Assembly (NCBI GenBank): GCA_021730905.1
Contig: JAKFYK010000018.1
Span: 48,481 to 112,480 of the forward strand
Direction of reading: 5' to 3'
Source of the DNA: Betaproteobacteria bacterium
GTDB taxonomy: Bacteria > Pseudomonadota > Gammaproteobacteria > Burkholderiales > SG8-41
DNA length: 64,000 nt
Shown here piece after piece: positions 504-17,461 of this stretch. Position 1 is the stretch's first letter, and each line of letters begins with the position of its first letter. The notes under the pieces were generated by a model. That model was not told where the DNA came from, searched no databases, and worked only from the letters and a program-made list of their open reading frames with translations. Position numbers and translations under genes: made by a program.

Positions 504-2420
504 CTACGGCGCGGTCGTTCCCAACGCCAGCATCAACTGATTCAAGCGCTTCACAAACCCGGCCGGGTCTTCAAGCTGGCCGCCTTCGGCGAGCAGCGAC
601 TGATCGAACAGCACTTTCGCCAGATCGCCAAAGCGCGTTTCGTCCGCCTCATCCTTCAAGCGTTGCACCAGCGGGTGATGCGGATTGATTTCGAGGATCG
701 GTTTTGACGTCGGCACATTCTGCCCCGCGGATTTAAGCAGCCGCTCGAAATTTGCGCCCATATCGTGTTCATCGGCGACCAGGCATGCGGGTGAATCGGT
801 GAGGCGCAATGTCACGCGCACATCCTTGACGGTTTCACCCAGCGATTTCTTGATGCGTTCGAGCAACGGCTTCGAATCGCTCTCTTCCTTCTCCTGCGCT
901 TTTTTCTCGGCTTCGTCTTCCAGTTTGCCGAGCTCCAGCCGGCCTTTCGCCACTGATTGCAGCGCCTTGCCCTCGAATTCGGTGAGGTGCTGGCTCACCC
1001 ACTCGTCCACGCGTTCATGCATCAGCAACACTTCAACACCCTTCTTGCGGAACACTTCCAGATGCGGGCTGTTTTTCGCGGCGGCAAAGGTTTCCGCGGT
1101 GACGTAGTAGATTTTTTCCTGTTCCGGTTTCATGCGCGAGACATAATCCGCGAGCGACACGTCCTGCGCAACGGTGTCAGTGTGCGTGGAAGCAAAACGC
1201 AGCACTTTAGCGATGCGCTCGCGGTTGCCGTGATCCTCGACCACGCCTTCCTTGATGACCTTGCCGAATTCCTTCCAGAAGGTGGCGAATTTCTCTTTAT
1301 GGTTCTCGGCGAGGTCTTCGATCATCGACAGCACGCGCTTGACGTTGCCCGCACGCATGGCCTCAATGTCTTTTGACTCCTGGAGAATTTCGCGCGACAC
1401 GTTCAGCGGCAGATCGGCGGAGTCGATCACCCCACGCACGAACCGCAGATACACCGGCAGCAGTTGTTCGGCGTCGTCCATGATGAACACGCGCCGCACA
1501 TAGAGCTTTATGCCGCGGCGGTGCTCGCGGTCCCACAGGTCAAACGGCGCGCGCGCCGGGATGTACAGCAGTTGCGTGTATTCCTTGCGCCCCTCGACCC
1601 GGTTGTGCGAGTACGCGAGCGGCGCCTCGAAATCATGCGCCACGTGCTTGTAAAACTCGTGGTATTGCTCCTCGGTAATCTCGTTCTTGGGACGCGCCCA
1701 CAACGCACTCGCCTGATTGACGGTCTGGTCCTTGCTGGTGGTGCGGTAGACGGAGTTGTCCTTGTCCCATTCTTCTTCCTTCATCACGATGGGTAAGGTA
1801 ATGTGATCGGAATATTTACGGATGATGCCGCGCAGCCGGTTGGCGTTGGCAAGTTCATCCTCACCTTCACGCAGATGCAGCGTGACTTCCGTGCCACGGC
1901 CTTCTTTATCGAGCGCTTCGAGCGTGTACTCGCCGCCGCCATCGGATTCCCAGCGCACGCCGCTGTCAGCAGGCTGTCCCGCGCGGCGCGTCACCACGGT
2001 CACCTTGTCGGCAACCACGAACGACGAATAAAAACCCACGCCGAACTGGCCGATCAAATTGGCGTCTTTCGCCTGATCGCCGGTGAGGGCATTCAGAAAT
2101 TCGCGCGTGCCGGACTTGGCGATGGTGCCGATGTTACTGATCACTTCCTCGCGCGACATGCCGATGCCGTTGTCGGAAACGGTAATGGTGCGCGCCTTGG
2201 GATCGAACGCCACGCGTATCTTCAACTCGGCGTCGTTCTCGAACAGAGCCTTGTCCGTCAACGCTTCGAAACGCAGCTTGTCCGCCGCATCCGACGCATT
2301 GGAAATCAGCTCGCGCAGGAATATCTCCTTGTTGCTGTACAAGGAGTGAATCATCAGGTTGAGCAGTTGTTTGACTTCGGCCTGAAAGCCGTGGGTTTCT
2401 TTAGTGGCAGTCGCGGTCAT
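504..2420 (-). CDS. htpG: Molecular chaperone HtpG (Hsp90)
   Basis: 638 aa. Hsp90 ATPase motifs [29 protein letters not shown]. Full-length. Confidence 0.95.
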
Positions 2421-2434
2421 GATAAATATCCAAT

Positions 2435-2449
2435 AAAAACATATACTTA
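2435..2449 (+). repeat. Dispersed 15-mer, 14/15 variant (AAAAACATATACTTA)
   Basis: Read directly. Lies between the htpG -10 element and the htpG ATG, so probably in the 5' UTR, in reverse orientation relative to htpG. Confidence 0.8.
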
Positions 2450-2462
2450 AGTATGTGAAAGT

Positions 2463-2491
2463 TAAATGGGGGCAGTTCGCTTGAATTCAAG
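2463..2491 (-). promoter_or_regulatory. RpoH (sigma-32)-type heat-shock promoter of htpG
   Basis: Minus strand reads CTTGAA, a 13-nt spacer, then CCCCCATTTA about 45 nt upstream of the htpG ATG. This matches the CTTGAA-N13-15-CCCCATNT consensus. Confidence 0.6.
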
Positions 2492-2573
2492 CGCCGCCCG
2501 CGCTGCATTACGCAGCCGAAATGCTTTGCTGGCGTACCGGTTCTCGCGCTGATATGCGCCAGCCCGGAAACGC

Positions 2574-3965
2574 TTAGCCTGCTTTACGCGCCTCACTCCC
2601 GCGCGCGAACAGCAGAACCACACCGCCGACCGCGAGTACCGCCAGACCCACCAGCGCATGGCCTTTGTGATAAGTCAGGCTGGAATACAGCAGGTAGCCG
2701 CACATGCACACAAAGATCGCGGGTAATACCGGATACAGGGGCACGCGGAAAGGCCGCGGCGCGTTTGGCTCTTTCGAACGTAATATGAAGAGCGCGATGC
2801 CTATCAACAGGAAGAATCCCCAAAATACCGGCAGCGAATATTCCACGAGCCCCTTGAAGCCGGCTTTCTGGAACGCGCCCAGGCCCACCAGTGCCAGCGC
2901 GATTACGCCCTGCACCACCATCGCGTTGCGCGGCGAGCCGCTCGCCTCATCCCAGCGACCGATATAACTGAAGATCGGCCAATCCTTGCCCAGCGCATAG
3001 TTCGAGCGCGCGCCCACAATGATCGAACCGTTTACCGAGGTCAGCGCGGCAATGGCAATCATGATCGAGATCAGCTTTTCGCCCCCCGTACCCCATACGG
3101 CCTTCAGCAAATCAGCCGCTACTGCATCCGAGCGCGCCATCGCGTAAAGGCCGAGGCCTTTCATATAGGCCAGCGCGATCAATACGTACAACACGGCCAC
3201 CACGCTGATAGCGATCAGCAGCGCACGCACCATGTTGCGTTCGCGGTCGCGCACTTCGGCCGAGATATAGGCCGCATCATTCCAGCCGCCATAGGTAAAC
3301 AGCACAAACAGCATCGCAGTACCCAGACCCGCGCCCATGTACCACGGCCCGCTGCCGGTTGCAGCAGCCACCACGGGCGGAGGTGGCGGCGGTGAGGCCA
3401 GCACAAGTCCCGCGATGATAATCAACAACAATCCGCCGACTTCCAGCACCGTGAAAATATTCTGTGTAACCTTGCCTTCCTGTATCCCGCGGTAGTTCAC
3501 CGCCGTGAGCACCAGTACCACCATCGCGGCCCAAATCGCCGAAGAATACTCTCCGAGATTCCACACACGCGACATGTAATCGCCGAACAGGTACGCAAAC
3601 ACCGCAATCGAGCCGGCGACGATGACGGTCATGCGTGCCCAGCCATACAGAAACGCCAGCGCGCGGCCGTAGGCGCGCTGTATGAAGTGATACTCGCCGC
3701 CTGCCGAGGGAAAAGCCGTCGCCAGTTCGCCATAGCACAACGCGCCGATGATGGAGAAGACGCCACCCGCGATCCATACGGCAACAACCAGTGTTTCATC
3801 GTTCATGGCGCCGGCCACGATGGCCGGCGTACCAAACACGCCTGCACCAACAATCAGGCCGACAATCATGGCACAGGCATCAAACACGGAAAGCGACGGC
3901 TTCGGCTGCGCGCCTGTCTCCACGGTGGGCTGATGTGCGCTCATATTATTTTCCGCCCGGCTCAT
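2574..3965 (-). CDS. APC-family amino acid permease
   Basis: 463 aa with about 12 hydrophobic segments and APC-like composition. Overlaps the 3' end of paralog 1 by 20 nt, so likely co-transcribed. Alternative start at 3944. Confidence 0.8.
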   Translation of the reverse strand: MSRAENNMSAHQPTVETGAQPKPSLSVFDACAMIVGLIVGAGVFGTPAIVAGAMNDETLVVAVWIAGGVFSIIGALCYGELATAFPSAGGEYHFIQRAYGRALAFLYGWARMTVIVAGSIAVFAYLFGDYMSRVWNLGEYSSAIWAAMVVLVLTAVNYRGIQEGKVTQNIFTVLEVGGLLLIIIAGLVLASPPPPPPVVAAATGSGPWYMGAGLGTAMLFVLFTYGGWNDAAYISAEVRDRERNMVRALLIAISVVAVLYVLIALAYMKGLGLYAMARSDAVAADLLKAVWGTGGEKLISIMIAIAALTSVNGSIIVGARSNYALGKDWPIFSYIGRWDEASGSPRNAMVVQGVIALALVGLGAFQKAGFKGLVEYSLPVFWGFFLLIGIALFILRSKEPNAPRPFRVPLYPVLPAIFVCMCGYLLYSSLTYHKGHALVGLAVLAVGGVVLLFARGSEARKAG

Positions 3966-4857
3966 CTTGCGCGCGTATCAGTTCACCACGCTTGATGCGT
4001 TTGGCTGTCCATGTCGCCTGACGCGCGGTAGCGCCCTCTCCAATGCGCACGGTACCGGTGATGGTCTCACCCGCCAGCTGGCCCTGAAACTCGTGACGCT
4101 CGATTTTTTGCGCGCCTTTGCCGGTCAGTGAAAATCTCACCTGTTCGCCAATCATCTTGCCGCGCATTTCACCGTTGACGCCGCCGGCCTGCGCATTGCC
4201 GTCGATGTTCTGGAAAAACTGCTCCAAGTCGAACTCGTACGGCACATCCTTGCCGCCGACGCTGATCGTGGATTGCCATTTGCCCGCAGCCAGCGCCGGC
4301 ACCACCCAGTAGAACACGTAGCTGATGCCGGGATTGCCCACTTTTTTCTCGGGAACCACCAGCGTTTTTTGCTCGTCCGGATACCAGTCGCCCATGCTGT
4401 AATCGTGCGCGACCACGCGCGTGCCGGGTTTAAGGCGCATGATTTTCGGGCGCAGCCTGAGATTCATCTCCGGCAGCAGATACGTCGATACCACCGTCGC
4501 CTCGGAAAAATCTGTCTCGAACAGATTTTGTTCACGAAACGTCACGCGATCGGCGACGTTTTCCTTGCGCGCGTTTTCATTGGCAAGTTTAAGCAAAAAG
4601 GTATCGAGATCGACGCCCAGCGCCTTGGCGCCGTACTTCTTGGCGGCGGTAATCACAAAGCGCCCATCGCCTGATCCGAGATCGATCAGATAATCCGCCT
4701 TGTTGACCTTCGCCATCATCAACATTTCATCCACCACGATTTGTGGTGTCGGCACATACACCACATCGCCCACGCCGGTTTGCGCCCACGACGGCGCCAC
4801 CGCGACAACCGCCGCCACAACAACCACCAACGCCCGTACCTGCTTCAGTAATTTCAT
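3946..4857 (-). CDS. Exported class I SAM-MTase-fold protein plus C-terminal module, paralog 1 of 8
   Basis: Start taken at MKLLKQVRALVVVVAAVVAVAPSWA/Q (signal-like). Motifs YVPTPQIVVDEML, LIDLGSGDGRFVITAAKKYG, GVDLD, LKPGTRVVAHDY. ATGA overlap with the paralog 2 stop. Confidence 0.8.
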   Translation of the reverse strand: MKLLKQVRALVVVVAAVVAVAPSWAQTGVGDVVYVPTPQIVVDEMLMMAKVNKADYLIDLGSGDGRFVITAAKKYGAKALGVDLDTFLLKLANENARKENVADRVTFREQNLFETDFSEATVVSTYLLPEMNLRLRPKIMRLKPGTRVVAHDYSMGDWYPDEQKTLVVPEKKVGNPGISYVFYWVVPALAAGKWQSTISVGGKDVPYEFDLEQFFQNIDGNAQAGGVNGEMRGKMIGEQVRFSLTGKGAQKIERHEFQGQLAGETITGTVRIGEGATARQATWTAKRIKRGELIRAQDEPGGK

Positions 4858-5789
4858 TGCTGCTCCCTGGTAAAAAATGTTGCCGCTACTGGGTTCCGCT
4901 CCGGCGGCTGCCCTCGACCGCCGGCAGCGGCGTCGATGAACATGCGTCCGCGTGCAGTGCGAATTGCGCGCCACGGCATCGGCACACCGTCCGTCAGCAC
5001 GCGGCCTTCCATCACGTCACCTTCCAAACGTCCGCTGAATTCCTGGCGCACACTACGACCATCGCGCTCGGTCACCACCGTAAAACTTACGCTGTCTCCG
5101 CGCACACGTGCATTGCTTATCTCGGCACGCCCGCCTGAAACCTGTCCTGCGGCAGATGCCATCTGGAAGGTCTGCTCGAAACTCGCATCGTACTCCAAAC
5201 TCATGCCGCCCACCGGCAGTTGCCAGCGCCAGCGGCCCGATACGTCCGCCGGCACCACCCAGAGAAAAATTTCACTCGATGGCGGGCCGTAGGATTTTTC
5301 CGGCACCGCGATGGTGAGCTTTTCGTCCGGCGTCCATTTGCCCATGTCAAAGTCGTGCGAAACAATGCGCGTGCCGGGCTTCAACTTGAACAGCGACGGC
5401 CGCAATCGCAGGTTCACTGCATGCAGCAGGTACATCGACACCACGCTCGCCTTGCTGATATCGGTGTCAAACAGATTGCGCGCATAAAACTCGGCGCGAT
5501 CTTTCACGCCCTCGCGTTCGGCATTGCGTCGCGCGGTACGCACCAGATTGTCATCGAGATCCACGCCGAAACCACGGGTGCCGATTCTTTTGGCGGCGGT
5601 GATCACGATACGCCCGTCGCCCGAACCGAGATCCACCAGATAATCGTTCGGCCCCACCGCTGCGAGTTTAAGCATGGCATCAACCACCACCCACGGCGTC
5701 GGCACGTAGGGCACGTCGGCGGCGCGCACGGGCGCCGCCCACAACCACAGCGCCAGTGCGGCAGTAGCGACAGGGCGCGCGGCAAGCAT
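4854..5789 (-). CDS. Exported class I SAM-MTase-fold protein plus C-terminal module, paralog 2 of 8
   Basis: Start taken at MLAARPVATAALALWLWAAPVRA/A. The ORF is open up to 5822. Motifs LVDLGSGDGRIVITAAKRIG, LKPGTRIVSHDF. TGATG overlap with the paralog 3 stop. Confidence 0.75.
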   Translation of the reverse strand: MLAARPVATAALALWLWAAPVRAADVPYVPTPWVVVDAMLKLAAVGPNDYLVDLGSGDGRIVITAAKRIGTRGFGVDLDDNLVRTARRNAEREGVKDRAEFYARNLFDTDISKASVVSMYLLHAVNLRLRPSLFKLKPGTRIVSHDFDMGKWTPDEKLTIAVPEKSYGPPSSEIFLWVVPADVSGRWRWQLPVGGMSLEYDASFEQTFQMASAAGQVSGGRAEISNARVRGDSVSFTVVTERDGRSVRQEFSGRLEGDVMEGRVLTDGVPMPWRAIRTARGRMFIDAAAGGRGQPPERNPVAATFFTREQQ

Positions 5790-6637
5790 CAAGGGGCCGC
5801 ACCCGCCCTGACGGCACGCCATGGATGCCGCGTCTGCACGCCGCCCACGCCACGGCGGAATTCACCTTCCATCACACTATCGCGCACCACGCCCTCAAAA
5901 TACATATTGGCCTCATTCTCACGGTCGGTGTTGTCGACGATGACGAAGCTCACACGGTCGCCGCGCAGCGAGGCCTGCCACAGGCCCGCCGGTGGGCGAT
6001 CCGCGACGCGTATCACGCCGTCGATCTGCTGATGCTTCTGGCGGATATCCATATCCCAGGTCTGCGCGCCCGCAGGCAACGGCAACTGCAAACGCCAGCG
6101 GCCCTGCATCTTTGCCGGCACGATCCACAGCATCACGTTCTTGCGTATGGTGACTTTGGCATCGGGTTGCCAATCGCCGAGGTCGAAGTCGTGCGCGACG
6201 ATGCGCGTGCCGGGTTTCAGCGCCAGCAATGACGGCCGCAGGCGCATGTTCACGCCGGGCAGCAGATACATGGTGATCACGCTCGCCTTGGAAAAATCGG
6301 TTTTGAACAGATCCTGCCGCAGAAACTGCACGCGCTCAGCGACGTTGGCAACGCGTGCATTCTCCTCGCTCTGGTAGATCAGGTTTTCGTCGAGATCGAC
6401 GCCAATGCCGCGCGCGCCGAATTTGCGTGCCGCCGTGATCAGGATGCGCCCGTCGCCGGAGCCGAGGTCCATCACGAAGTCATCTTTCGTCACGTTCGCC
6501 AGCCGCAGCATTTCATCGACCACTACTTGCGGCGACGGCACGAACGGCACCTCGTACGGCCATTGCGCGCGCGCGACAGTTGCCATCAGCAGCAACGCCA
6601 CCGCTGCGAATCTTAATGAAATTTTATTTAAAAACAT
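5789..6637 (-). CDS. Exported class I SAM-MTase-fold protein plus C-terminal module, paralog 3 of 8
   Basis: Signal-like MFLNKISLRFAAVALLLMATVARA/Q. Motifs VMDLGSGDGRILITAARKFG, LKPGTRIVAHDF. AT-rich first codons merge with the 15-mer variant. Confidence 0.8.
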   Translation of the reverse strand: MFLNKISLRFAAVALLLMATVARAQWPYEVPFVPSPQVVVDEMLRLANVTKDDFVMDLGSGDGRILITAARKFGARGIGVDLDENLIYQSEENARVANVAERVQFLRQDLFKTDFSKASVITMYLLPGVNMRLRPSLLALKPGTRIVAHDFDLGDWQPDAKVTIRKNVMLWIVPAKMQGRWRLQLPLPAGAQTWDMDIRQKHQQIDGVIRVADRPPAGLWQASLRGDRVSFVIVDNTDRENEANMYFEGVVRDSVMEGEFRRGVGGVQTRHPWRAVRAGAAP

Positions 6638-6644
6638 ATGCTTA
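6630..6644 (+). repeat. Dispersed 15-mer, 13/15 variant (AAAAACATATGCTTA)
   Basis: Read directly. Contains the paralog 3 start codon (on the complement) and fills most of the 12-nt gap to the paralog 4 stop. Confidence 0.7.
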
Positions 6645-6649
6645 TAATA

Positions 6650-7507
6650 TCATTGCTGAGCGGATTGCACACGCTGCGCGCGCCAGCGCTGCTCGCTTGA
6701 TTTTAGACCCACGCCATACCGTACCGTGCCTTCGACCATATCGCCACGCACCTCGCCCTCGAAACGGTAACTCACATCGTCCTCGACCAGCACGAAACTC
6801 AAGCGCTCACCGGAGAGTTGCGCTTCAAATGCCGGCAAAAATCCGCCTTGCACGCGCACCCCGCCGCGCACTTCCTGATAGCGCTGCTGTATGTCGAGCA
6901 TGAATTCGCGGCCTTTCGCCATGGGCGCGTCGATACGCCATGCGCCGGCCACGTTCGCCGGCACCACGTAGAGCATATAGGTTTTGGAAATCTGGATTTT
7001 GCGATCCGGTTTCCACTCCGCAAAACCATAATCGTGCGCCACGATGCGCGTGCCGGGTTTGAGTTCGGCCAGCAGCTTGGGCTCGAGCTTTACCACCAGC
7101 GAAGTCAACAAGTACATCGTCACCACCGTCGCCGCACGCAGATCGGCGGCAAAGATATCGCTGTGACGAAACTCGGCACGTTCGCCGACGCCGGCGCGAC
7201 GCGCGTTTTCCGTGCTCTCGCGCACCAGCGCCGCATCGAGCTCGATGCCGACGCCGCGCGCGCCGTAATCGCGGGCCGCCGCGATGACGATACGGCCGTC
7301 GCCTGAACCCAGATCGAACACCACATCGTGCGGCGTTACCCCGGCGAGGCGCAGCATTTCATCGACATTGCCGCGCGTTGAAGGAATGTAGGGCGTGGGC
7401 ACATCCAGCATGGCCGCACGCGCAGACATGCTCGCGGCAACACACAACAGCATTGCGAATCGCACGAATAGCGGCACAAGCAGCACTGTTCTCAGGACTG
7501 CGCGCAC
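6650..7507 (-). CDS. Exported class I SAM-MTase-fold protein plus C-terminal module, paralog 4 of 8
   Basis: Signal-like MRAVLRTVLLVPLFVRFAMLLCVAASMSARA/A. Motifs VFDLGSGDGRIVIAAARDYG, GIELD, LKPGTRIVAHDY. Confidence 0.8.
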   Translation of the reverse strand: MRAVLRTVLLVPLFVRFAMLLCVAASMSARAAMLDVPTPYIPSTRGNVDEMLRLAGVTPHDVVFDLGSGDGRIVIAAARDYGARGVGIELDAALVRESTENARRAGVGERAEFRHSDIFAADLRAATVVTMYLLTSLVVKLEPKLLAELKPGTRIVAHDYGFAEWKPDRKIQISKTYMLYVVPANVAGAWRIDAPMAKGREFMLDIQQRYQEVRGGVRVQGGFLPAFEAQLSGERLSFVLVEDDVSYRFEGEVRGDMVEGTVRYGVGLKSSEQRWRAQRVQSAQQ

Positions 7508-7511
7508 CGTG

Positions 7512-8414
7512 CTACCTCGCCATCACGCCGGGTTTCAAATCCGTAAAGCGCGGGTCACGCAGCTCGGTGCGCATCGCGGTCCACGACTGCGGCGCGCCAC
7601 TGCGGCGCATCTCGCCCGTGATCGCGTTATTGATGACCTTGCCGCTGAATTCGTGGCGCACCGGCTTACCGCCGATATCCAGCATCGCCGCAAAGCTGAT
7701 GTGTTCGCCTGCCAGCACGGCATTTTCCATCTTTGCGCTGCGGCCCGACACCGAAACCGTGCCGGTGATTTTCTGGAACACCTGATCAACATTTAATTCG
7801 ACAAACTGCGGCTTGCCGTCGATAGCCTGTTGCCACAGCCACTTGCCTGCCACGCGCGAAGGCACCATCCAATACATCACTTTGCTCTTTTGGTCGCGTC
7901 CCACGGGCTTGCCCGGCGCATCCATCACGATCTCCACATCCGGCGGCCACTCGCCAAAGCCGTAGTCGTGCGACACCAGGCGCGTTCCAGGCTTTAGCGC
8001 AAGGACACGCGACCGTATCATGAGGTTCACTTCGGGCAGCAGATAAATCGTCAACACGTCTGCCTGCGTGATATCGGTTTCATGCAAATCGCGCTCGTAA
8101 AACACCGCGCGGTTGGCAACGCCCGCCTTCGCCGCGTTGCGGTTGCTCAGGGTCACCAGGCTCTTATTGAGATCGACGCCAAAGCCGCGCGCGCCGTATT
8201 TTTTTGCGGCAGTGATGATGAGCCGCCCGTCGCCCGAACCCAGATCGATCAGATAGTCCTTCGCGGTGACCTTGGCCATTTCCAGCATCTTGTCGACAAC
8301 CACCTGCGGCGTCTGCACATATGGCGTGTCACCGTAGTCCTGCGCGGCCACCCATGCCGGCGCTGTCGAGCACAGTACGAGCGCAATTAATCTGAAGAAT
8401 GGCGCGCGCATCAT
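7512..8414 (-). CDS. Exported class I SAM-MTase-fold protein plus C-terminal module, paralog 5 of 8
   Basis: Signal-like MMRAPFFRLIALVLCSTAPAWVAA/Q. Motifs LIDLGSGDGRLIITAAKKYG, LKPGTRLVSHDY. 4-nt overlap with paralog 6. Confidence 0.8.
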   Translation of the reverse strand: MMRAPFFRLIALVLCSTAPAWVAAQDYGDTPYVQTPQVVVDKMLEMAKVTAKDYLIDLGSGDGRLIITAAKKYGARGFGVDLNKSLVTLSNRNAAKAGVANRAVFYERDLHETDITQADVLTIYLLPEVNLMIRSRVLALKPGTRLVSHDYGFGEWPPDVEIVMDAPGKPVGRDQKSKVMYWMVPSRVAGKWLWQQAIDGKPQFVELNVDQVFQKITGTVSVSGRSAKMENAVLAGEHISFAAMLDIGGKPVRHEFSGKVINNAITGEMRRSGAPQSWTAMRTELRDPRFTDLKPGVMAR

Positions 8415-9349
8415 TGCACCTGTCCGGCGTGGTGTGCCATCGCCGAAGCGGTGCGCGGCGAGCGCACGGCGTTCCAGTCGTATTGTCCCTGTGCGCGGCT
8501 GCCCGACAAAGCGGCCGAGCCGCTGACGCTTTCGCCATCAATCTTGCCCTTGAAGTCATGCTTGACTGGTCCTGCGCCGAGGTCGGCCGTGAAAGAAAAG
8601 CTGATCTCCTCACCCTGTAATTTGACGTTTTGCAACGGCGCAGTACGGCCATTGACGCTGGCATTGCCCGATACCATTTGAAAGGTCTGGCTGAGCATCG
8701 CGGTGTAGGGCTGCGGCTTGCCGCCTTTGCCGCCCGAGGGTAACTCCCAGCGCCAGCTGCCGGCCACTTTTGCCGGCACTATCCAGAAGTAAATGTCGCT
8801 CTGGCCGGGGGCGCTGCCATATTTTTCCTTAACCTCCAATTGGACGAATGCATCCGGCTTCCAGTCGTCCATCGAAAAATCGTGCGACACGATGCGCGTG
8901 CCCGGTTTGAGGTCGAGCAGCTTGGGGCGCAATTCCATGTTCACGCGCGGCAGCAGATACATGGTGATCACCGTCGCCTGCGACAGATCGGTCTGGAACA
9001 GATCACGCTGATAAAACGCTGCCTTGTCCGTGACACCCGCTTTCCGCGCATTGTCGAGCGCCTCCGACACGCGCGTGGGATTGATATCCACGCCAAATCC
9101 CCGCGCCCCGTGCTTCTTCGCCGCGGTCACCACGATGCGGCCGTCGCCGGAACCCAGATCGATCAGGTAGTCATTCGCGCCAACCTTCGCCATTTGCAGC
9201 ATGCGATCCACCACTTCCTGCGGCGTGGGCACGTAGGGCACGCGCGGTTCCTGCGCCATAGCGAAAGCAGCAGTCATGGCAAGCATTACAGCAAACAAAC
9301 AAACGCGGACACGCACACACACTGCGGCACCGCTCAAGCGTTGATCCAT
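8411..9349 (-). CDS. Exported class I SAM-MTase-fold protein plus C-terminal module, paralog 6 of 8
   Basis: Start taken at MDQRLSGAAVCVRVRVCLFAVMLAMTAAFAMA/Q. The ORF is open up to 9382. Motifs LIDLGSGDGRIVVTAAKKHG, GVDIN, LKPGTRIVSHDF. Confidence 0.75.
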   Translation of the reverse strand: MDQRLSGAAVCVRVRVCLFAVMLAMTAAFAMAQEPRVPYVPTPQEVVDRMLQMAKVGANDYLIDLGSGDGRIVVTAAKKHGARGFGVDINPTRVSEALDNARKAGVTDKAAFYQRDLFQTDLSQATVITMYLLPRVNMELRPKLLDLKPGTRIVSHDFSMDDWKPDAFVQLEVKEKYGSAPGQSDIYFWIVPAKVAGSWRWELPSGGKGGKPQPYTAMLSQTFQMVSGNASVNGRTAPLQNVKLQGEEISFSFTADLGAGPVKHDFKGKIDGESVSGSAALSGSRAQGQYDWNAVRSPRTASAMAHHAGQVQ

Positions 9350-9512
9350 ACCAAACACGATGGGAACTCCTTGCAGATTCAACTTCGGCTATGACAGCGA
9401 TCACCGGCGCGCCGTTCATATTGCCTGCACCGCGCCAGCAATCCGCGCGGCTATTGCAGCTATGGTAGATTCGCGGACGACGATTATACCCGACACCGCA
9501 CTGGACACTCCG

Positions 9513-11099
9513 ATGCTGCTGCAATCCGTGATATTCATCTCCGGCGGTGCGATACTCGCGCTGGAGTTGCTGGCGTCGCGCGTGATGACGCCCTACTTCG
9601 GGGTAAGCCTTTATATATGGACCGGCATCCTGTCCATCACTCTTGTCGCGCTGGCCACGGGATACTGGATCGGCGGCAGGCTCGCCAATGCACGCAGTGC
9701 TACACCCGCTGCCCTGATGGAACTCTACGGGCTGATGCCTGCGGTCGCCGCTGCTGGTATCGTGGCGGCATGCCTGATGTACCCCTTCGTGTTCGTACCG
9801 CTGGCCAACTGGAGTCTGGTGGGCGGATCGTTTGTCGCCTGTCTGCTGCTGCTCGCCATACCGCTGGTGGCGGCGTCGGCGATGAATCCGCTGCTGGTGG
9901 CCATACAGCGCCGCGCGGCGGGAGACGGCGGCGCGGGCCAGGTTTTCTTTGTCAGCACGCTGGGTTCGGTCGCCGGCGTGCTGGTGACCGCGTTCGGCCT
10001 GATTCCATTTGTGAGCAACTATGATTCGGTATTGATCGTTGCCGCCGTATTGGCGTTGCTGAGCATCGCCATCGCGGCTTTCCCGCCGCGCGACCTCAGG
10101 AAGCGCAGCCTTATCGGCGCAACATCGATGGTCGCGCTGATCGCCGCATTGCTGCTGTTGTGGCAAGCCGATGCCTATACCGGCCGCAAAGGGCCGATCA
10201 GCCATCTTGGCAAACAGTGGCATGTGGAAGCGACCTTCCGCTCGTTGTTCGGCACCGTAAAAATACTCAAGCACGAGCCGGATGCGGACGGCCAGTACTG
10301 GCGCATCTATTTTCAGGACGGGCTTACCCAGAATTCCGTCGAATCCAGCGGCCGCTCGCGTTCTTTCTATACCTATGCGCTGGAAGCGCTGGCGATGGCC
10401 TATCACCCGCAAGCGCGCAGCGCGCTGGCGCTGGGCCTCGGCGCGGGTATGACGCCGGCACGTCTGGCCGCGCGCGGCATCACCACTGAAATCGTGGAAA
10501 TCGATCCAGCTTCATTGCAGGCCGCGCGCCGTTTTTTTGGGCTCGACGAACACAAGACCGTGGTCCACCATGCCGATGCGCGCACCTTTGTCCACGCCTG
10601 CCCGCGAACCTACGATCTGGCGGTGGTTGATTTATTTCACGGCGACGGCACGCCTGATTACCTGATCACGCGCGACTTTTTCCGCGATTTGCGGCGCTGT
10701 ATCGGCGAACGCGGCATAGCCGTGTTCAATACCTTTGCCGATCTGGAGAATCCCGTCAGTTATGCGCATTTACTTACCACGCTGCGCTCAGAGTTGCCGC
10801 ATCTGGCGATCTACCGGCCCGCCTCGATCGGCGCATCGCATACCAACAGTTTCATTGTCGCCAGTGCCGTGCCGCTGCCCGCCATCACGCGCGTCACCAT
10901 GGATGACATGCCAACCCGCCATGAAACCACGCTGTGGGATATGCTGAGCGCACCCATGACGCTGACGACGGAACTGTTCGCCGGCGGCAAAATCATCAGC
11001 GACGCACACAATCGTGCGGCGCTCGATCTGGCCCATGTGCAACGGATCTATCGGCAGGCTGTGATCGGCAACACACCGCCTGCATTTCTGCTGAACTGA
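9513..11099 (+). CDS. Polytopic membrane domain fused to a spermidine-synthase-like (class I MTase-fold) domain
   Basis: ORF 9360-11099. Start chosen at MLLQSVIFISGG; alternatives are 9462 and 9360. About seven hydrophobic segments by eye. C-terminal domain has ALGLGAGMTPARLAARGITTEIVEIDP and VDLFHGDG. Divergent from paralog 6 and convergent with paralog 7. Confidence 0.7.
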   Translation: MLLQSVIFISGGAILALELLASRVMTPYFGVSLYIWTGILSITLVALATGYWIGGRLANARSATPAALMELYGLMPAVAAAGIVAACLMYPFVFVPLANWSLVGGSFVACLLLLAIPLVAASAMNPLLVAIQRRAAGDGGAGQVFFVSTLGSVAGVLVTAFGLIPFVSNYDSVLIVAAVLALLSIAIAAFPPRDLRKRSLIGATSMVALIAALLLLWQADAYTGRKGPISHLGKQWHVEATFRSLFGTVKILKHEPDADGQYWRIYFQDGLTQNSVESSGRSRSFYTYALEALAMAYHPQARSALALGLGAGMTPARLAARGITTEIVEIDPASLQAARRFFGLDEHKTVVHHADARTFVHACPRTYDLAVVDLFHGDGTPDYLITRDFFRDLRRCIGERGIAVFNTFADLENPVSYAHLLTTLRSELPHLAIYRPASIGASHTNSFIVASAVPLPAITRVTMDDMPTRHETTLWDMLSAPMTLTTELFAGGKIISDAHNRAALDLAHVQRIYRQAVIGNTPPAFLLN

Positions 11100-11102
11100 A
11101 GC

Positions 11103-12005
11103 TTACGGGCTTGATACGTCAAGCGGCTGCGGCGGAGACGTACGCTGTGCGGCGAATCGCTGCTTGCGCTCAGTATTTCCGCGCCTCACACGCAGCTCGC
11201 CGTTCAACGTGTCACCGTCGAATCGCGCTGAAACATGGTATTCCGCACCGGCCATTGCGCAGGTAAACGCCAGCACCGCACCGCTGACCGACACGTTCGT
11301 CAGCGGCAACAACTCCGTGCCACGCCGTACTGCGCCGCTCGCGCGCTGATAACGCTGGGTAATGGAAATCTCCACGGTTGCAGGTGGCACGTCCTCCACA
11401 CGCCACGACCATTCGCCGCTGAAATTCGCCGGCACTGTCCACAGGCGCAGCGTGCTGTCGCCGCCACTGCCGGCGTTGCGCGTGGGAGCGTATAGCGTCA
11501 GCGTCTCGTCAGGCGGCCAGCCCGGCAATGGAAACTCGTGCGCCACGATGCGCGCGCCGGGTTTCAGTTCCCTCAGCAACTTCGGCCGCACGCGCGCCAT
11601 CAACGGCGGCAACAGGAACAGCGTGATCACGCTGGCGCGGCTCACATCGGCCGCAATCAGGTCCCCGACTTCGAAGCGCGCGCGTTCGCCGAGCTTGTGC
11701 CGTTGCGCCTCGGCATTGCTTTTTTCCACCAGCGCCGCGTCGATGTCGATGCCCAGTCCGCGCGCACCGTAGCGTCTGGCTGCCGCGATGACGATGCGTC
11801 CGTCGCCGGAACCCAGGTCCATCACGAAATCGTCCGCCGTCACGCGCGCCAGTTCGAGCATGCGCTGCACGGTGGCGTCTGGTGTCGGAAAATAAAACGA
11901 GAAGGTTTCGTCAGTTGGCGACGCTGCGTGCAGCGCTTGCGGCCACGGTGCGGCCAGCGCAAATACGCCGAGCAAAAATTGGCGGCGCGTGAACCATGCG
12001 CTCAT
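11103..12005 (-). CDS. Exported class I SAM-MTase-fold protein plus C-terminal module, paralog 7 of 8
   Basis: ATG start gives MSAWFTRRQFLLGVFALAAPWPQALHA/A, which is twin-arginine-like. Alternative GTG start at 12029. Motifs VMDLGSGDGRIVIAAARRYG, GIDID, LKPGARIVAHEF. Confidence 0.75.
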   Translation of the reverse strand: MSAWFTRRQFLLGVFALAAPWPQALHAASPTDETFSFYFPTPDATVQRMLELARVTADDFVMDLGSGDGRIVIAAARRYGARGLGIDIDAALVEKSNAEAQRHKLGERARFEVGDLIAADVSRASVITLFLLPPLMARVRPKLLRELKPGARIVAHEFPLPGWPPDETLTLYAPTRNAGSGGDSTLRLWTVPANFSGEWSWRVEDVPPATVEISITQRYQRASGAVRRGTELLPLTNVSVSGAVLAFTCAMAGAEYHVSARFDGDTLNGELRVRRGNTERKQRFAAQRTSPPQPLDVSSP

Positions 12006-12041
12006 GAAAACCGCCGGAGTCTGGTTCACATGAAGTAATTA

Positions 12042-12056
12042 TAAGTATTTGTTTTT
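12042..12056 (-). repeat. Dispersed 15-mer, exact copy (plus strand reads TAAGTATTTGTTTTT)
   Basis: Read directly. Lies in the short gap between the paralog 8 stop and the paralog 7 start. Confidence 0.9.
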
Positions 12057-12061
12057 ATTTA

Positions 12062-12940
12062 CTATTTACCGATAGTCACACGCTCCGCCTGCCACTTGGC
12101 GTCTTTGCCATCGAGATTGACGACGCCGCTCATCGCGCCACCTTTGACCTTGCCGCGATAGTGATGCCGCACGGACGCGTTGCCCCAAATGGAAAAGCTG
12201 ATGTCTTCGCCATTCAACGCCACATCGGTGATGCTCATGCCGCGGGCGTTGGGCAACGCGCCGCTGACGGCATGATAATTCTGCTTGAGATCCACGTCGC
12301 GCGATACATCGGTGCCGGCCACCTTGATCTGCCAGCGTCCCGACACCTTTGCGGGAATCGTCCACAGATACAGCGTTGCGCTCGGCACGCCGTTGATCAG
12401 CTCTTTTTCCGGCACATCGAAGGTAATCCGGTCGTCGGCCTCCCAGTCGCCGAAATGATAGTCATGCGACACTACGCGTGCCCCGGGACGCAGTTCGTTG
12501 TAGATCTTGTCACGCAGATTCATCATCATCGCCGGCAGCAGATAAAGCGTTACCACCGTGGCACGCGACAGATCGGCCTTGAACACGTCCTGCGCCTGGA
12601 ATGCCGCGCGATCCCCGATACCGAATTTCTTCGCCGTGGCATTGGACAAGCGCACCAGTTCAGGATCAATTTCGATGCCCATGCCGCTGGCCTTCAGTTG
12701 CCGCGTCGCAGTGAGCACGATCACACCGTCACCGGAACCCAGATCCATTACAAAATCATTCGCACCCACGCGGCCAAAGCGCAGCATCTGATCCACCACC
12801 ACCTGCGGCGTGGGCACATAGGGTCCCCCGGTGCGTTCGATTTCCTTGACCTGCGCCTGCGCGCTTCCCGCGCACAAGGCGCCGATGAGCGCTGCCAAAA
12901 AAAATCGCCGTACGAAATGCATATTTCTGCTCCTGATCAC
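12062..12940 (-). CDS. Exported class I SAM-MTase-fold protein plus C-terminal module, paralog 8 of 8
   Basis: GTG start overlaps the upstream stop (GTGA). Alternative ATG at 12922. N-terminus MHFVRRFFLAALIGALCAGSAQA/Q has an RRxFL motif. Motifs VMDLGSGDGVIVLTATRQLK, GIEID, LRPGARVVSHDY. Confidence 0.75.
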   Translation of the reverse strand: MIRSRNMHFVRRFFLAALIGALCAGSAQAQVKEIERTGGPYVPTPQVVVDQMLRFGRVGANDFVMDLGSGDGVIVLTATRQLKASGMGIEIDPELVRLSNATAKKFGIGDRAAFQAQDVFKADLSRATVVTLYLLPAMMMNLRDKIYNELRPGARVVSHDYHFGDWEADDRITFDVPEKELINGVPSATLYLWTIPAKVSGRWQIKVAGTDVSRDVDLKQNYHAVSGALPNARGMSITDVALNGEDISFSIWGNASVRHHYRGKVKGGAMSGVVNLDGKDAKWQAERVTIGK

Positions 12941-13266
12941 GGTTTGGGTTTGGGTTTGGGCAGGCCGAGTTCGCCGGCCTTGCAGGCCTCGAAAATTTCG
13001 TGCACCGATGCTTCGCTGGTAAAACTCACACGCACCACCTGACGCAGCAGATTGAGTTCCTGCGCATCCAACTTTTGCTGCAGGTCGCTGCGCTCAATCT
13101 CTTTCATCACCGCGCTCAATGATGAACCCTGATCGCGCAGCTTCACCGTCGTCTGCGCCACCGCCACCACCTGATCGCATTCGAGCGTTGCGTATGCCGG
13201 GCCGCCCCACAAGAGGGAAAGAAAGGCGGCAAAAGCACCAATTAAGCCGGAAATTTTTCCTGACAT
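12937..13266 (-). CDS. Small secreted hypothetical protein with a KPKPKP tail
   Basis: Start taken at MSGKISGLIGAFAAFLSLLWGGPAYA/T. Two Cys residues. First gene of the paralog 8-7 unit. Confidence 0.5.
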   Translation of the reverse strand: MSGKISGLIGAFAAFLSLLWGGPAYATLECDQVVAVAQTTVKLRDQGSSLSAVMKEIERSDLQQKLDAQELNLLRQVVRVSFTSEASVHEIFEACKAGELGLPKPKPKP

Positions 13267-13343
13267 AATGTGCAATATTACCTTACTCCAATCACCGTTC
13301 GTTAGGTTAAAATGCGCCGCCTGTTTCCAAAACTGAATTCGCA

Positions 13344-14066
13344 ATGGCTCATATGAACCGCACCATCGCACAACGTTGCATGCCGCTGGTTTTCGCCGGG
13401 GTGAGCGCGTTGGGCATGTACAGTGGCCCGTGCGCGGCGGACATCTGGGGCTACGTCGACGACAAGGGTGTCGCCCACCTTAGTGATCATCAGGTCAATG
13501 AGCGTTATTTTTTGTTCAAGAAAGAAGCGCCGCGGCCCAAAGCAGAGGAACCCGACTATGCCGCGCTCGAACGCATGAGTGCGGTGGGATCCGTGACCGC
13601 CGTGAATCCTGCGCTGCGTGCGCAATTCGCGCCGCTGATCCTGCAAGTCGCTCAGGAATACGGTCTTGACGTATCGCTGCTGCACGCCATCATCACTGTC
13701 GAGTCCGGCTACAACCCGCAGGCCCGGTCGCCCGCCGGCGCCATCGGACTAATGCAACTGATGCCCGGCACTGCGCAAAAATACGGCGTGCGCAATATCT
13801 GGGACCCGCTCGAAAATCTGCAAGGCGGCGCGCGTTACCTGCGCTTCCTGCTCGCGATGTTTCCCAACAAGCTCGATCTGGTGCTGGCCGCTTACAACGC
13901 CGGCGAAGGCGCCGTGCAGCAAGCCGGCATGAAGATCCCGCCTTACGCCGAGACGCAGGCCTATGTGCCCAACGTCATCACGCAATACCAGCGTTACCGC
14001 GCGGCCGTGACACCCGCGGGCACCGTACCAGCGCCCACCACGAATCGCGAACTACTGATTCGCTAA
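13344..14066 (+). CDS. Lytic transglycosylase (SLT domain)
   Basis: 240 aa with an N-terminal signal. Motifs LLHAIITVESGYNPQARSPAGAIGLMQLMPGTA and AAYNAGEGAV. Confidence 0.85.
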   Translation: MAHMNRTIAQRCMPLVFAGVSALGMYSGPCAADIWGYVDDKGVAHLSDHQVNERYFLFKKEAPRPKAEEPDYAALERMSAVGSVTAVNPALRAQFAPLILQVAQEYGLDVSLLHAIITVESGYNPQARSPAGAIGLMQLMPGTAQKYGVRNIWDPLENLQGGARYLRFLLAMFPNKLDLVLAAYNAGEGAVQQAGMKIPPYAETQAYVPNVITQYQRYRAAVTPAGTVPAPTTNRELLIR

Positions 14067-14099: not shown

Positions 14100-15335
14100 T
14101 TAGGTCTTGCACTTTCCCACCAGCAGCATACACACGAGTCCAGCCGCCGACGGAATCGCCATCAGCGCGAATGCGCTCGCATAGCTGCCCGATGCATGAT
14201 AGGCGAAAGTGAACACAATCGGGCCGATGAACTTGCCGATGTTCACCAGAAACAACGACCCGCCGGTAGCCGCACTGACAGATTGCGCCGGCGCGAGGCG
14301 CGCGACTTCCGCCAGAAACGCGCCGTTCCAGCCGCTGGCGGTGGTGCCCAGCACGAAGAACAGCGCGCACGATGCGATGACGGGCCACGCAGGCGTGATC
14401 GCGAGACACAGCACGGTCGTGACCGTCATCACCACGGCCAGCAGTGACAGCGCCTTGAAACAATCACGCAAAACATCCGCCACCCATCCCCAAAACAGAC
14501 GGCCCGCGACGCCACCCACCTGTGACGCCATCAGAATGAATCCCGCCTGCACCAGTCCGAGCTTCATTTCCTCGACGAAAAAAATCACCGTGAAGGTCGA
14601 TAGCGCAAGCTGCATGATCACAAACGCGCCGCCCGCGATGCCGAGCAGCCGCAAAGCGCGATCACGCCACACCATGGCGAGTCCGCCGAATGGATTGGCG
14701 ACCCACTGCGCCTGCGGATCCCGATCGTTGTCCCAATACGCGCGGCCACGCTGCATGCAAATCATCAGCAACGCCAGCGCCACCGCGTTGCCGGCCAGCG
14801 CCCACTGCCAGCCCACCCACACCGCGACTGCTGGCGCGATGCCCGCGGCAGCAATGCCGCCCAGCGGCACGCCGGTCTGCTTGACCGAAAAGATCAGGTT
14901 GCGGCGCTCGGGGGGCGTGAATCGCATCATGACCTGCGACGCCGCCGGCGACACCAGTCCGTAACCCAGTCCCATCGGCAGTGCCGACAGCAACATGAAT
15001 CCCTGATGCGGCAACATGGCGGCGATGCAGCCGACGATGCACAGCGCCAGTCCTAACTGACCGACGCGGCAGCCGCCCCAGCGCACCGAAAGGTGGCCGC
15101 ATAACACCAGCGACACCAGCATCGCCAGCGAAATCAGGCTCACCTGATAGCCGATCAGCGATGAACTGATGTGGTAACTTTCAACAACCTTGGGTGCAAC
15201 CGCCGGCAGGATTGACGTCGCCATGGTGCCCAGCGCCTGACCGAGCAGCAGCACGGTCAACAAAAAAACAAACGGTGGAGGATTGCTGATGCGGGACGGC
15301 TCGGCCTGATACCGGTGATCCTGCCGATTTACCAT
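14100..15335 (-). CDS. MFS transporter
   Basis: 411 aa with about 12 hydrophobic segments. Confidence 0.75.
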   Translation of the reverse strand: MVNRQDHRYQAEPSRISNPPPFVFLLTVLLLGQALGTMATSILPAVAPKVVESYHISSSLIGYQVSLISLAMLVSLVLCGHLSVRWGGCRVGQLGLALCIVGCIAAMLPHQGFMLLSALPMGLGYGLVSPAASQVMMRFTPPERRNLIFSVKQTGVPLGGIAAAGIAPAVAVWVGWQWALAGNAVALALLMICMQRGRAYWDNDRDPQAQWVANPFGGLAMVWRDRALRLLGIAGGAFVIMQLALSTFTVIFFVEEMKLGLVQAGFILMASQVGGVAGRLFWGWVADVLRDCFKALSLLAVVMTVTTVLCLAITPAWPVIASCALFFVLGTTASGWNGAFLAEVARLAPAQSVSAATGGSLFLVNIGKFIGPIVFTFAYHASGSYASAFALMAIPSAAGLVCMLLVGKCKT

Positions 15336-15362
15336 CTGACAGGATTAATAAAAAAGTATATT

Positions 15363-15377
15363 AAAAACATATACTTA
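15363..15377 (+). repeat. Dispersed 15-mer, 14/15 variant (AAAAACATATACTTA)
   Basis: Read directly. Lies in the gap between the tctA stop and the MFS start. A related AAAAAAGTATA sits just upstream. Confidence 0.8.
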
Positions 15378-15391
15378 TGATAACACACTAC

Positions 15392-16912: not shown

Positions 16913-16967
16913 TCAGGTTCAGGATTGAGCCGTCAGCGTATTGCTGAACCCTCGATCCTGGTTCCGT

Positions 16968-17444
16968 TTACACGCCCCACGGACTCACCGGCAGCGGCAC
17001 CCTCAACAACGTCGCAAACAGATAGTAGGTGGCGAGCGAAAATCCAATGCCGACCACCGCCACCATCACCGGCTTGCGCCTTTCCATTACGCCGAGAAAA
17101 AACACCAGCAACGCCGCCATGGTGATGCGATAGCCCAGGCGCTCCAGCGCATACGCCGCCACACCGCACGCGACCAGCAGCGCGATGGCGCGCCTGGTTT
17201 CTGTCCATTGCATCGCCACCAGCGGCATCGACTTGCCGCCGCTCAGCGTAACGAGCAAGCCCATCACCCCCATGAATATCGCCAGCAGCAGCGGCACATA
17301 GCCCGGCCCCGGCTCCGATAGCGAGCCTATCGGATACGCGCGGTTCATCCACCACACGTAGAGTGCGAGCGCCACCAGCATCAATCCCGAAACCCGGTCG
17401 CTGCGCAGTTGCCGCCCACTGGACGACGCTGGTTCCTGAGCCAT
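16968..17444 (-). CDS. tctB: Tripartite tricarboxylate transporter, small subunit TctB
   Basis: 158 aa with 4 hydrophobic segments, located between tctC and tctA. Confidence 0.75.
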   Translation of the reverse strand: MAQEPASSSGRQLRSDRVSGLMLVALALYVWWMNRAYPIGSLSEPGPGYVPLLLAIFMGVMGLLVTLSGGKSMPLVAMQWTETRRAIALLVACGVAAYALERLGYRITMAALLVFFLGVMERRKPVMVAVVGIGFSLATYYLFATLLRVPLPVSPWGV

Positions 17445-17461
17445 GTGTGATTGCGTCTTGA

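Follow-up and report, generated by a model that had tools for sequence, protein, structure and literature searches.

The question raised by this locus is where a methyltransferase that appears to leave the cytoplasm would find its S-adenosylmethionine (SAM). The locus lies in a stretch of 64,000 nucleotides (nt) of a Betaproteobacteria bacterium (order Burkholderiales; assembly GCA_021730905.1, contig JAKFYK010000018.1, positions 48,481 to 112,480; this whole 64 kb stretch is referred to as the window) and holds eight tandem paralogs, numbered 1 to 8 along the window, each of which combines a predicted export signal with a SAM-dependent methyltransferase core and a C-terminal module (C-module). 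To our knowledge, bacterial SAM-dependent chemistry has been treated as strictly cytoplasmic, and the methyl groups on lysines of secreted or outer-membrane proteins are usually taken to have been attached before the proteins leave the cytoplasm. Since SAM is not known outside the cytoplasm, export signals on such enzymes create a paradox of cofactor supply. An earlier note on this DNA, made from the sequence alone, had left the SAM supply unknown and had missed that paralog 1 overlaps a conserved neighbour, i.e., the gene of a putative LAT-family amino-acid permease. This predicted exchanger next door is a concrete candidate for the supply, and it co-occurs with the enzyme across phyla.

A LAT-like permease is the recurrent partner of the methyltransferase genes

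All-against-all clustering of the open reading frames (ORFs) flanking the family in related loci (the relatives compared with the window, designated L001 etc.) revealed the permease to be the dominant recurring neighbour. In a forward test, an adjacent permease gene on the same strand was present in 27 of 81 enzyme-seeded loci, spread over at least eight phyla or classes, and these adjacent permeases were 38–86% identical to that of the window and 45–53% identical among themselves across phyla (with L076 as an outlier, its permease being 28% identical and 1.2 kb distant). The adjacent pair has a cultured carrier in Pollutimonas subterranea JR1/69-3-13 (L074), and a member of the enzyme family occurs in Pseudorhodoferax sp. 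Leaf267 (L036). As a homology search with the permease returned relatives at 78–100% identity only, the reverse linkage was assessed by a metagenome scan with a permease alignment headed by a Latescibacterota sequence, in which loci flanked by 1 kb or more on each side were considered. A methyltransferase core of the family was found in 32 of these 37 fully flanked permease-seeded loci (86%), almost always as the directly adjacent same-strand gene, with either of the two genes coming first.

Besides the permease, the genes that recurred were a seven-transmembrane (7-TM) spermidine-synthase-like gene (see below) and background TctC, LysR and ABC genes, while neither ORF clustering nor a Pfam scan of 91 directly neighbouring genes in permease-less loci yielded any further recurrent neighbour. 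Since the linkage was found in both directions and no further neighbour recurred, the basic unit is a two-gene module of enzyme and permease, of which the window carries an expansion with eight enzymes and one permease.

The permease gene starts within the 3′ end of paralog 1, with 20 nt in common. Its product is a protein of the APC superfamily that comes nearest to the LAT subfamily; it matched Pfam AA_permease_2 (E 2e-54; 185 bits vs. a cutoff of 27), and its best relatives of solved structure were BasC (6f2g, E 8e-49), LAT1, y+LAT and xCT. Moreover, the consensus of the permease clade holds GxGIF and TYGGWNE, the LAT criteria being GxG in the first transmembrane segment (TM1) and (F/Y)GGWN in TM6. 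The permease was also considered as a possible methylation target; this is not favoured, the permease clade being without an invariant lysine.

The methyltransferase core is of aKMT type

The class I SAM-binding fold and the resemblance to FAM173 enzymes that had been recognised earlier were borne out by profile matches, matches to solved structures, model superposition and published homology (PMC9006661). The NCBIfam model NF041081 (archaeal protein-lysine N-methyltransferase aKMT) matched all eight paralogs (E 1e-27 to 1e-38) over nearly all of its 142 positions, with scores of 93.6–129.5 bits that stay under the cutoff of 200 of this archaeal equivalog model, and generic Pfam methyltransferase families gave weak matches. 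In a sequence search of the PDB, paralog 6 matched 5bxy (a Salinibacter ruber protein deposited as 'RNA methyltransferase' with bound S-adenosylhomocysteine, SAH) with an E-value of 1e-48 and Sulfolobus aKMT with an E-value of 7e-42, and the core was 45–53% identical to two solved SAM/SAH complexes. The AlphaFold2 model of paralog 6 (predicted local distance difference test, pLDDT, 91.4; predicted template-modelling score, pTM, 0.82) superposed by Foldseek on 5bxy with a template-modelling score (TMt) of 0.93 and on aKMT (5fa8/5fad) with a TMt of 0.88–0.91, at root-mean-square deviations of 1.2–2.2 Å and with 46–53% identity. The window proteins were aligned with aKMT and 5bxy; the tie from aKMT to FAM173 is taken from the literature, in which FAM173A/B are described as aKMT homologs and aKMT is noted to have uncharacterised homologs in alpha-proteobacteria (PMC9006661).

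In a joint alignment, aKMT and 5bxy agreed at 67 positions, of which each paralog retains 43–56 and 24 are invariant across all eight. The invariant features include DLGxGDG, the acidic residue of beta-2, the LL of strand 4, PG, the histidine of SH(D/E) and the W that follows, so that by this alignment the SAM-site motifs appear intact in all eight copies, as had been proposed. The accompanying suggestion that the copies might be pseudo-enzymes is weakened by this retention of solved-homolog positions and by a low ratio of nonsynonymous to synonymous substitution rates (dN/dS) of 0.08–0.10 in the core. By analogy with the SAH-bound homolog 5bxy, the paralogs may bind SAM and transfer methyl groups to protein lysines. 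More than 8000 homologs of paralog 6 were found, which public databases list under no names other than 'class I SAM-dependent methyltransferase' and 'hypothetical protein'.

N-termini of the family point to export

Export was assessed by heuristics of N-terminal layout, and not by a trained predictor, in the 145 family members with complete N-termini from the 81 loci. Whereas aKMT begins at its VPYVPTP lead-in, the window proteins carry 25–45 additional residues ahead of it, and in the eight paralogs no alternative start was found that drops this extension and keeps the lead-in, isolated internal GTG codons excepted. The succession of basic residues, hydrophobic stretch and small-x-small site described earlier was present in all eight. 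Across the family, an uncharged hydrophobic stretch (median 16 amino acids) occurred in 143 of 145 members; it was directly preceded by K or R in 141 and followed by a small-x-small site in 125 of these 143, with a neutral to acidic linker behind it.

Twin-arginine (RR) motifs were seen in 20 of these N-termini and lipobox-like sites in 17. The former include TRRQFIAG (L002), SRRRFLAAG (L021) and NRRRFLARAG (L037), along with TRRQFLLG of paralog 7, whose relatives in L006 and L008 likewise bear RR motifs, and VRRFFLAAL of paralog 8. The translation start of paralog 7 is probably GTG 12029 or ATG 12005, either of which keeps the RR motif. Beyond residue 30, cysteine was absent from seven paralogs and occurred once in the remaining one.

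In short metagenome forms adjacent to the permease, the signal is often of lipobox type, with a long linker of Ser, Thr, Pro and Ala behind it. Examples are the methyltransferases of about 190–200 amino acids without C-module that lie just downstream of the permease match in L099, L100, L101, L103 and L104, and whose layout suggests membrane-tethered lipoproteins; the crystallised Salinibacter protein 5bxy (158 amino acids) may belong to this short type.

The proteins thus look exported, as the earlier note had claimed, with N-termini that by these heuristics consistently indicate the Sec, Tat or lipoprotein route. By the same heuristics, the family would not reside in the SAM-containing compartment (cytoplasm or matrix) that typifies aKMT-type enzymes.

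The C-terminal module is a widespread predicted beta-barrel domain

The C-module spans about 105 amino acids, with GxW near its N-terminus and W-x-A-x-R near its C-terminus, and had been taken to be private to the array proteins. This did not hold. When 1.84 billion representatives were searched exhaustively with a profile, 3707 clusters were returned at E ≤1e-3, and among the best 150 of these, 131 consist of one to seven tandem modules without a methyltransferase core and 19 are methyltransferase fusions. About 100 of the 131 repeat-only proteins have an N-terminal signal-like stretch ahead of the modules. A word-indexed search with the C-module found truncated copies of the same family only, the repeat-only proteins surfacing in the exhaustive search.

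No Pfam family matched the C-module and a PDB profile search gave no sequence relative; the repeat-only relatives showed weak Pfam matches to Calycin_like and Lipocalin_4. Modelled alone, the C-module formed a nine-strand up-and-down barrel (pLDDT 91), for which the top Foldseek matches (FABP/CRBP, BT_0869 and the Cap15 barrel) were all of calycin type but weak (E 0.009–0.04; template-modelling scores 0.37–0.60), so that no ligand can be deduced from them. The C-module therefore represents a beta-barrel domain of wide distribution outside the cytoplasm, which methyltransferases have recruited here, and its occurrence otherwise in signal-peptide-bearing proteins is further evidence for an exported location of the latter. 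One library representative (P0166, 1027 amino acids) carries seven C-modules flanked by a C-terminal fragment of penicillin amidase and a SnoaL/DUF4440-like domain, so that the barrel also occurs together with extracytoplasmic enzyme domains of other kinds.

The module is more diverged than the core: among paralogs it is 28% identical vs. 51% for the core, and among orthologs 40–50% vs. 64–76%. This would fit a specificity-determining part. Since it was present in just 36 of 59 permease-linked enzymes of the metagenome set, the C-module is optional.

The array is an old amplification in which every copy is maintained

The ORF listing of the window returned the eight minus-strand genes reported earlier, and a profile built from them found exactly these eight copies and none further in the 64 kb. 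Over their full length, the paralogs are 33–47% identical in pairwise comparison, with 39 invariant columns in a multiple alignment, including those of DLGSGDG, LxPGxRxVxH and WxxD. The description of the junctions as 1–4 nt overlaps stands for three of them (4 nt between paralogs 1 and 2, 1 nt between paralogs 2 and 3, 4 nt between paralogs 5 and 6), whereas at the others the genes are separated by 4, 12 and 32–56 nt. Likewise, the DNA had been called not repeat-like; it does in fact form a detectable repeat of eight copies with a period of 836–950 bp, yet these are only 60–79% identical, in agreement with a diverged and not recent origin. A promoter and terminator scan of positions 2300–13700 gave counts equal to those of shuffled controls and is therefore uninformative.

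A scan of one genome per species yielded 80 loci with the family, distributed over Burkholderiales, Hyphomicrobiales, Rhodospirillaceae, Gamma- and Deltaproteobacteria, Bacteroidota, Balneolaceae, a Melioribacteraceae metagenome-assembled genome (MAG), Aminicenantes, Binatia and Latescibacterota, and among these loci arrays of 5–10 copies were found only in Burkholderiales MAGs. Each window paralog has its own Burkholderiales ortholog at 55–86% identity, vs. the 33–47% among paralogs. Orthologs of paralog 3 (55–72% identity) occur in L002, L003, L005, L006, L009, L010 and L017, those of paralog 4 (61–65%) in L002, L006 and L009, and those of paralog 8 in L004, L006, L010, L011, L012, L017 and L055, while the paralog 1 orthogroup is the permease-adjacent copy in every syntenic array. 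The shared order is paralog 8, paralog 7, the spermidine-synthase-like gene (on the opposite strand), paralogs 6, 5, 4, 3, 2 and 1, and the permease. In the related assembly GCA_019634975.1, the order is a small ORF, paralog 8, the spermidine-synthase-like gene, six methyltransferases, the permease and htpG, and independent gene calls in this assembly give methyltransferases of 271–308 residues. One Burkholderiales MAG (L008, positions 793–10825) harbours a ten-copy array, one copy of which has a QLSTQLSTQLST repeat linker behind the signal region.

Compared with the L001 orthologs, dN/dS was 0.08 in the core and 0.11 in the C-module of paralog 1, 0.10 and 0.16, respectively, in those of paralog 2, 0.5–0.6 in the signal region and 0.07 in the permease. 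The conserved gene order, the higher identity among orthologs than among paralogs and the dN/dS values of 0.08–0.16 agree with the earlier proposal of an old amplification under selection, in which all copies are being maintained. A pseudogene state or relaxed selection is ruled out by the dN/dS values, and a recent duplication by the ortholog identities, the conserved order and the low identity of the DNA copies.

The spermidine-synthase-like gene and other neighbours

The features of the locus are collected in Table 1. The 7-TM gene lies inside the array, divergent from paralog 6 and convergent on paralog 7; its ORF opens at 9360, with a conserved start at about 9513. Full-length counterparts inside the array were found in nine related loci, with a fragment in L005 and further copies in L081/L082, and the gene is confined to Burkholderiales arrays. 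Its product scored 155.7 bits with NF037959 (fused MFS/spermidine synthase; cutoff 40) and 29.2 bits with Pfam Spermine_synth (cutoff 22.9), and stayed far below the SpeE equivalog cutoffs. Hydropathy revealed seven segments in this spermidine-synthase-like fusion, and in nine orthologs the loops contain 1–2 lysines plus arginines after odd-numbered segments vs. 6–11 after even-numbered ones. By the positive-inside rule, this bias places the Rossmann domain outside, so that the C-terminal spermidine-synthase-like domain is predicted to face the periplasm. In aminopropyltransferases, the acidic residue of the GGG(D/E)G motif selects decarboxylated SAM. Alignment with 7xif and 1uir showed GLGAG in place of GGGEG and DLFHGDG in place of DLTDP, and with these alterations of the motif and of the catalytic DxxDP segment the protein is not a canonical aminopropyltransferase; it may bind SAM rather than decarboxylated SAM.

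Table 1. Features of the array and its immediate surroundings (positions in the window)
Feature	Coordinates	Strand	Model or basis
Putative LAT-family (APC superfamily) amino-acid permease, 463 amino acids	2574..3965	-	Pfam AA_permease_2, neighbour linkage
Paralog 1: predicted signal peptide, aKMT-type methyltransferase core, putative calycin-like beta-barrel	3946..4857	-	
Paralog 2: architecture as paralog 1	4854..5789	-	
Paralog 3: architecture as paralog 1	5789..6637	-	
Paralog 4: architecture as paralog 1	6650..7507	-	
Paralog 5: architecture as paralog 1; orthologs 55–63% identical	7512..8414	-	
Paralog 6: architecture as paralog 1; copy chosen for structure modelling	8411..9349	-	
7-TM membrane protein with spermidine-synthase-like Rossmann domain	9513..11099	+	NF037959
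Paralog 7: architecture as paralog 1; twin-arginine-type signal TRRQFLLG	11103..12029	-	
Paralog 8: architecture as paralog 1; RR-containing signal VRRFFLAAL	12062..12940	-	
Small exported-looking protein with hydrophobic N-terminus, two Cys and KPKPKP tail	12937..13371	-	

The small ORF and paralog 8 share 4 nt, at the stop of the former and the start of the latter, and the small ORF is probably the first gene of an operon running through paralogs 8 and 7. No Pfam or NCBIfam match was obtained for its product. In L010 and L055, homologs lie upstream of the paralog 8 ortholog, L011 has a weaker match farther upstream, and L081/L082 have a 100-amino-acid gene at the equivalent position, which makes four related lineages in all.

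Elsewhere in the window, a plus-strand gene at 30–500 encodes 156 amino acids with an N-terminal hydrophobic segment and two repeats resembling the C-terminal domain of ribosomal protein L7/L12 (PF00542, E 1e-17); this suggests a protein anchored in the membrane and made up of a ribosomal-protein domain. The region 14100–19543 holds a major-facilitator gene (from the Pfam scan), followed by ORFs that by eye resemble TctA, TctB and TctC and by a second TctC-like receptor; TctC genes also lie near the family in other Burkholderiales loci and constitute background.

A possible periplasmic SAM supply and competing explanations

The reading that we tentatively put forward, with somewhat less than even confidence for the chain as a whole, is that periplasmic N-methyltransferases are fed by a SAM/SAH exchanger. 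The locus would then be an expanded two-gene module of an exported aKMT/FAM173-type N-methyltransferase and a LAT-family exchanger, the enzyme gene having been amplified long ago in a Burkholderiales lineage into seven to ten orthogroups (eight of them in the window) that share one permease. The enzymes would cross the inner membrane via Sec, with paralogs 7 and 8 using Tat, and would methylate amines in the periplasm, by homology most likely lysine side chains of envelope proteins, with the diverged calycin-like barrel of each paralog probably selecting the target. The permease would export SAM and retrieve the inhibitory product SAH, and the same pool of cofactor would also be drawn on by the 7-TM spermidine-synthase-like protein, as a second user facing the periplasm.

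In this chain, we infer periplasmic catalysis, the lysine acceptor and the permease substrates. SAM and SAH are proposed as substrates because the minimal module consists of an enzyme and a transporter and because both compounds are alpha-amino acids, and exchange is proposed because SAH would otherwise build up and inhibit the enzymes. LAT-type proteins are exchangers that tolerate bulky side chains, and one permease for eight enzymes fits a shared resource. The proposal also draws on precedent, as APC-type permeases carry SAM in yeasts (i.e., Sam3, PMC2175321, and Gap4, PMC5177730) and a bacterial SAM/SAH counter-exchanger exists in another transporter family (CTL843, PMC3104491).

A wider form of the proposal, which we hold with slightly more reserve, is that many Gram-negatives run a periplasmic SAM economy in which a LAT-type exchanger powers exported aKMT-type methyltransferases, the eight barrels of the window standing for eight target classes. 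This economy would here include the periplasm-facing spermidine-synthase-like enzyme, and its targets would be envelope proteins or amino-lipids, modified after export.

A number of observations weigh against such a supply. The periplasmic location of the family members, and of SAM, is predicted rather than experimentally placed, the export calls are purely heuristic, and lysine is assumed as the acceptor solely from aKMT and FAM173. TIGR00911 (L-type transporter) is the best-matching subfamily of the permease, yet with 194 bits vs. a cutoff of 702, and the permease sequence shows no feature specific to SAM. The spermidine-synthase-like domain is without the acidic residue of the GGGEG motif. 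In addition, about two thirds of the 81 enzyme-seeded loci have no adjacent permease (some being cut by contig ends, others belonging to the subfamily described below), which means that supply by the permease is either not universal or encoded elsewhere. In the ten-copy array of L008, neither a permease nor the spermidine-synthase-like gene was present within the 12 kb examined. Finally, a subfamily in which the mature N-terminus (Y/F)xPxVGQxGKDV(V/I)WVPT replaces DVPYVPTP (the GQEGKDVV subfamily; L016, L020, L023, L031, L033, L040–L046, L051, L054, L058, L060, L062, L064, L067, L074, L076 and L078) is never permease-adjacent except in L074, and may use another partner or supply.

One unlikely alternative keeps the enzymes active and exported but has their SAM come from elsewhere (i.e., carried by a Tat-exported, SAM-loaded single-turnover enzyme, through the 7-TM protein or by leakage), with the permease moving a small-molecule substrate or methylated product such as an amino-acid-like amine. 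LAT-family transporters do normally carry ordinary amino acids, and many family loci are without a permease. The RR motifs of paralogs 7 and 8 and of about 20 homologs would also suit export in a folded, cofactor-loaded state; most members, however, have Sec-type or lipoprotein signals, and unfolded chains cannot carry SAM. Likewise, the 7-TM gene is limited to Burkholderiales arrays whereas the permease link spans phyla, and a single permease for eight barrels suits a common cofactor better than eight substrates. Moreover, the closest characterised relatives act on proteins, not on free amino acids (PMC9006661).

The methyltransferase fold might instead have been recruited for a non-catalytic role in the periplasm, binding ligands for the permease or acting as its accessory subunit; it would either capture a ligand for uptake (SAM, SAH or a related nucleoside amino acid) or stabilise the transporter. 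This, too, we consider unlikely. Eukaryotic LAT light chains pair with a heavy chain whose ectodomain is enzyme-like and inactive (4F2hc/rBAT), and an exported protein whose gene is tightly linked, in both directions, and translationally coupled to that of a LAT-type transporter would agree with such an arrangement. The crystallised bacterial homolog with bound SAH indicates that the pocket binds ligands of this kind. Residues shared with aKMT beyond the SAM pocket (SH(D/E)F, W and PG-R) are nevertheless invariant, with dN/dS of 0.08–0.10, and eight subunits for one transporter would be unparsimonious. It also counts against this possibility that we know of no solute-binding proteins for APC transporters.

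It is very improbable that the hydrophobic stretch is an uncleaved anchor with a cytoplasmic catalytic domain that methylates inner-membrane proteins, e.g., the permease, in which case there would be no SAM paradox: FAM173A/B do carry a transmembrane domain at the N-terminus, and their targets, ANT and ATP synthase subunit c, are inner-membrane transport proteins (PMC9006661), and the gene is coupled to a membrane transporter, but the positive charges ahead of the stretch and the neutral-to-acidic linker behind it orient the domain outward, the stretch is short and mostly ends in small-x-small, clear twin-arginine motifs and lipoboxes occur among homologs, the fused C-module is found elsewhere in signal-peptide proteins, and the permease clade offers no invariant lysine.

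Novelty and relation to known systems

Literature searches (including 'periplasmic methyltransferase' and related phrases) revealed neither an exported or periplasmic SAM methyltransferase family nor a methyltransferase-permease gene pair, in line with the earlier note, which knew of no described system of this type. The fold and lineage are already known, while no description was found of four further features, i.e., an export signal, a calycin-like barrel fused to the core, an array of several paralogs and a dedicated permease, and there is a substantial chance that the locus marks a new compartmental use of SAM. What makes the case notable is a cross-phylum family of more than 8000 homologs that bears export signals and a seemingly intact SAM site and is genetically tied to one transporter clade, so that the question of periplasmic methylation and SAM becomes directly testable with two defined genes. 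If the permease does exchange SAM for SAH, it would be the first exporter of SAM and also the first transporter to supply a cofactor to an extracytoplasmic enzyme class. The mitochondrial SAM carrier imports the SAM that is used by FAM173 enzymes, and a periplasmic SAM economy would be the bacterial counterpart of this pair on the opposite side of the membrane. Such an exchanger would also bear on the suggested bacterial origin of the mitochondrial FAM173 methyltransferases (PMC9006661). Should the methyltransferase-fold proteins be binding subunits instead, they would make up the first accessory-protein-dependent LAT-type transporter in bacteria.

Among known proteins, the broad-specificity aKMT of Sulfolobus islandicus (5fa8/5fad/5jwj) and Salinibacter ruber 5bxy have the same seven-beta-strand core and share with the window proteins the motifs VPYVPTP..VV..ML, DLG(S/C)GDGR, the acidic residue of beta-2, TxxLL, LKPGTRxVSH(D/E)F and W-P. 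Unlike the window proteins, which add an export signal and the barrel of about 105 amino acids, aKMT is a cytoplasmic enzyme of 161 amino acids from the lead-in on. The added C-module, predicted as a nine-strand up-and-down barrel, has its best, though weak, fold matches among calycin- and lipocalin-like barrels (FABP/CRBP, BT_0869, Cap15). The likeness to FAM173A/ANTKMT and FAM173B/ATPSCKMT, drawn from the literature, is one of lineage, of a hydrophobic N-terminus and of an association with inner-membrane transport proteins (PMC9006661). FAM173 enzymes, however, have an uncleaved anchor and methylate lysines facing the matrix (equivalent to the bacterial cytoplasm), while the signal-type N-termini of the window proteins predict the opposite side.

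On the transport side, Chlamydia CTL843, yeast Sam3, Candida Gap4 and the mitochondrial SAM carrier move SAM (and CTL843 also SAH) for the methyltransferases of compartments unable to make it. These known SAM transporters import into the cytoplasm or organelle, and none of them belongs to the LAT subfamily or is coupled to an exported enzyme; Sam3 and Gap4 are amino-acid permeases (PMC2175321, PMC5177730).

Finally, Rickettsia PKMT1/2 and Acinetobacter KmtA methylate lysines of the surface proteins OmpB and AtaA, respectively (PMC11784438, PMC10450907), and the paper on KmtA names no signal peptide. These enzymes differ from the window proteins in belonging to another family (with an AdoMet-binding and a dimerisation domain), in having no linked permease and in not forming arrays. 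If the targets of the window proteins are envelope proteins, PKMT1/2 and KmtA would be their closest functional analogue.

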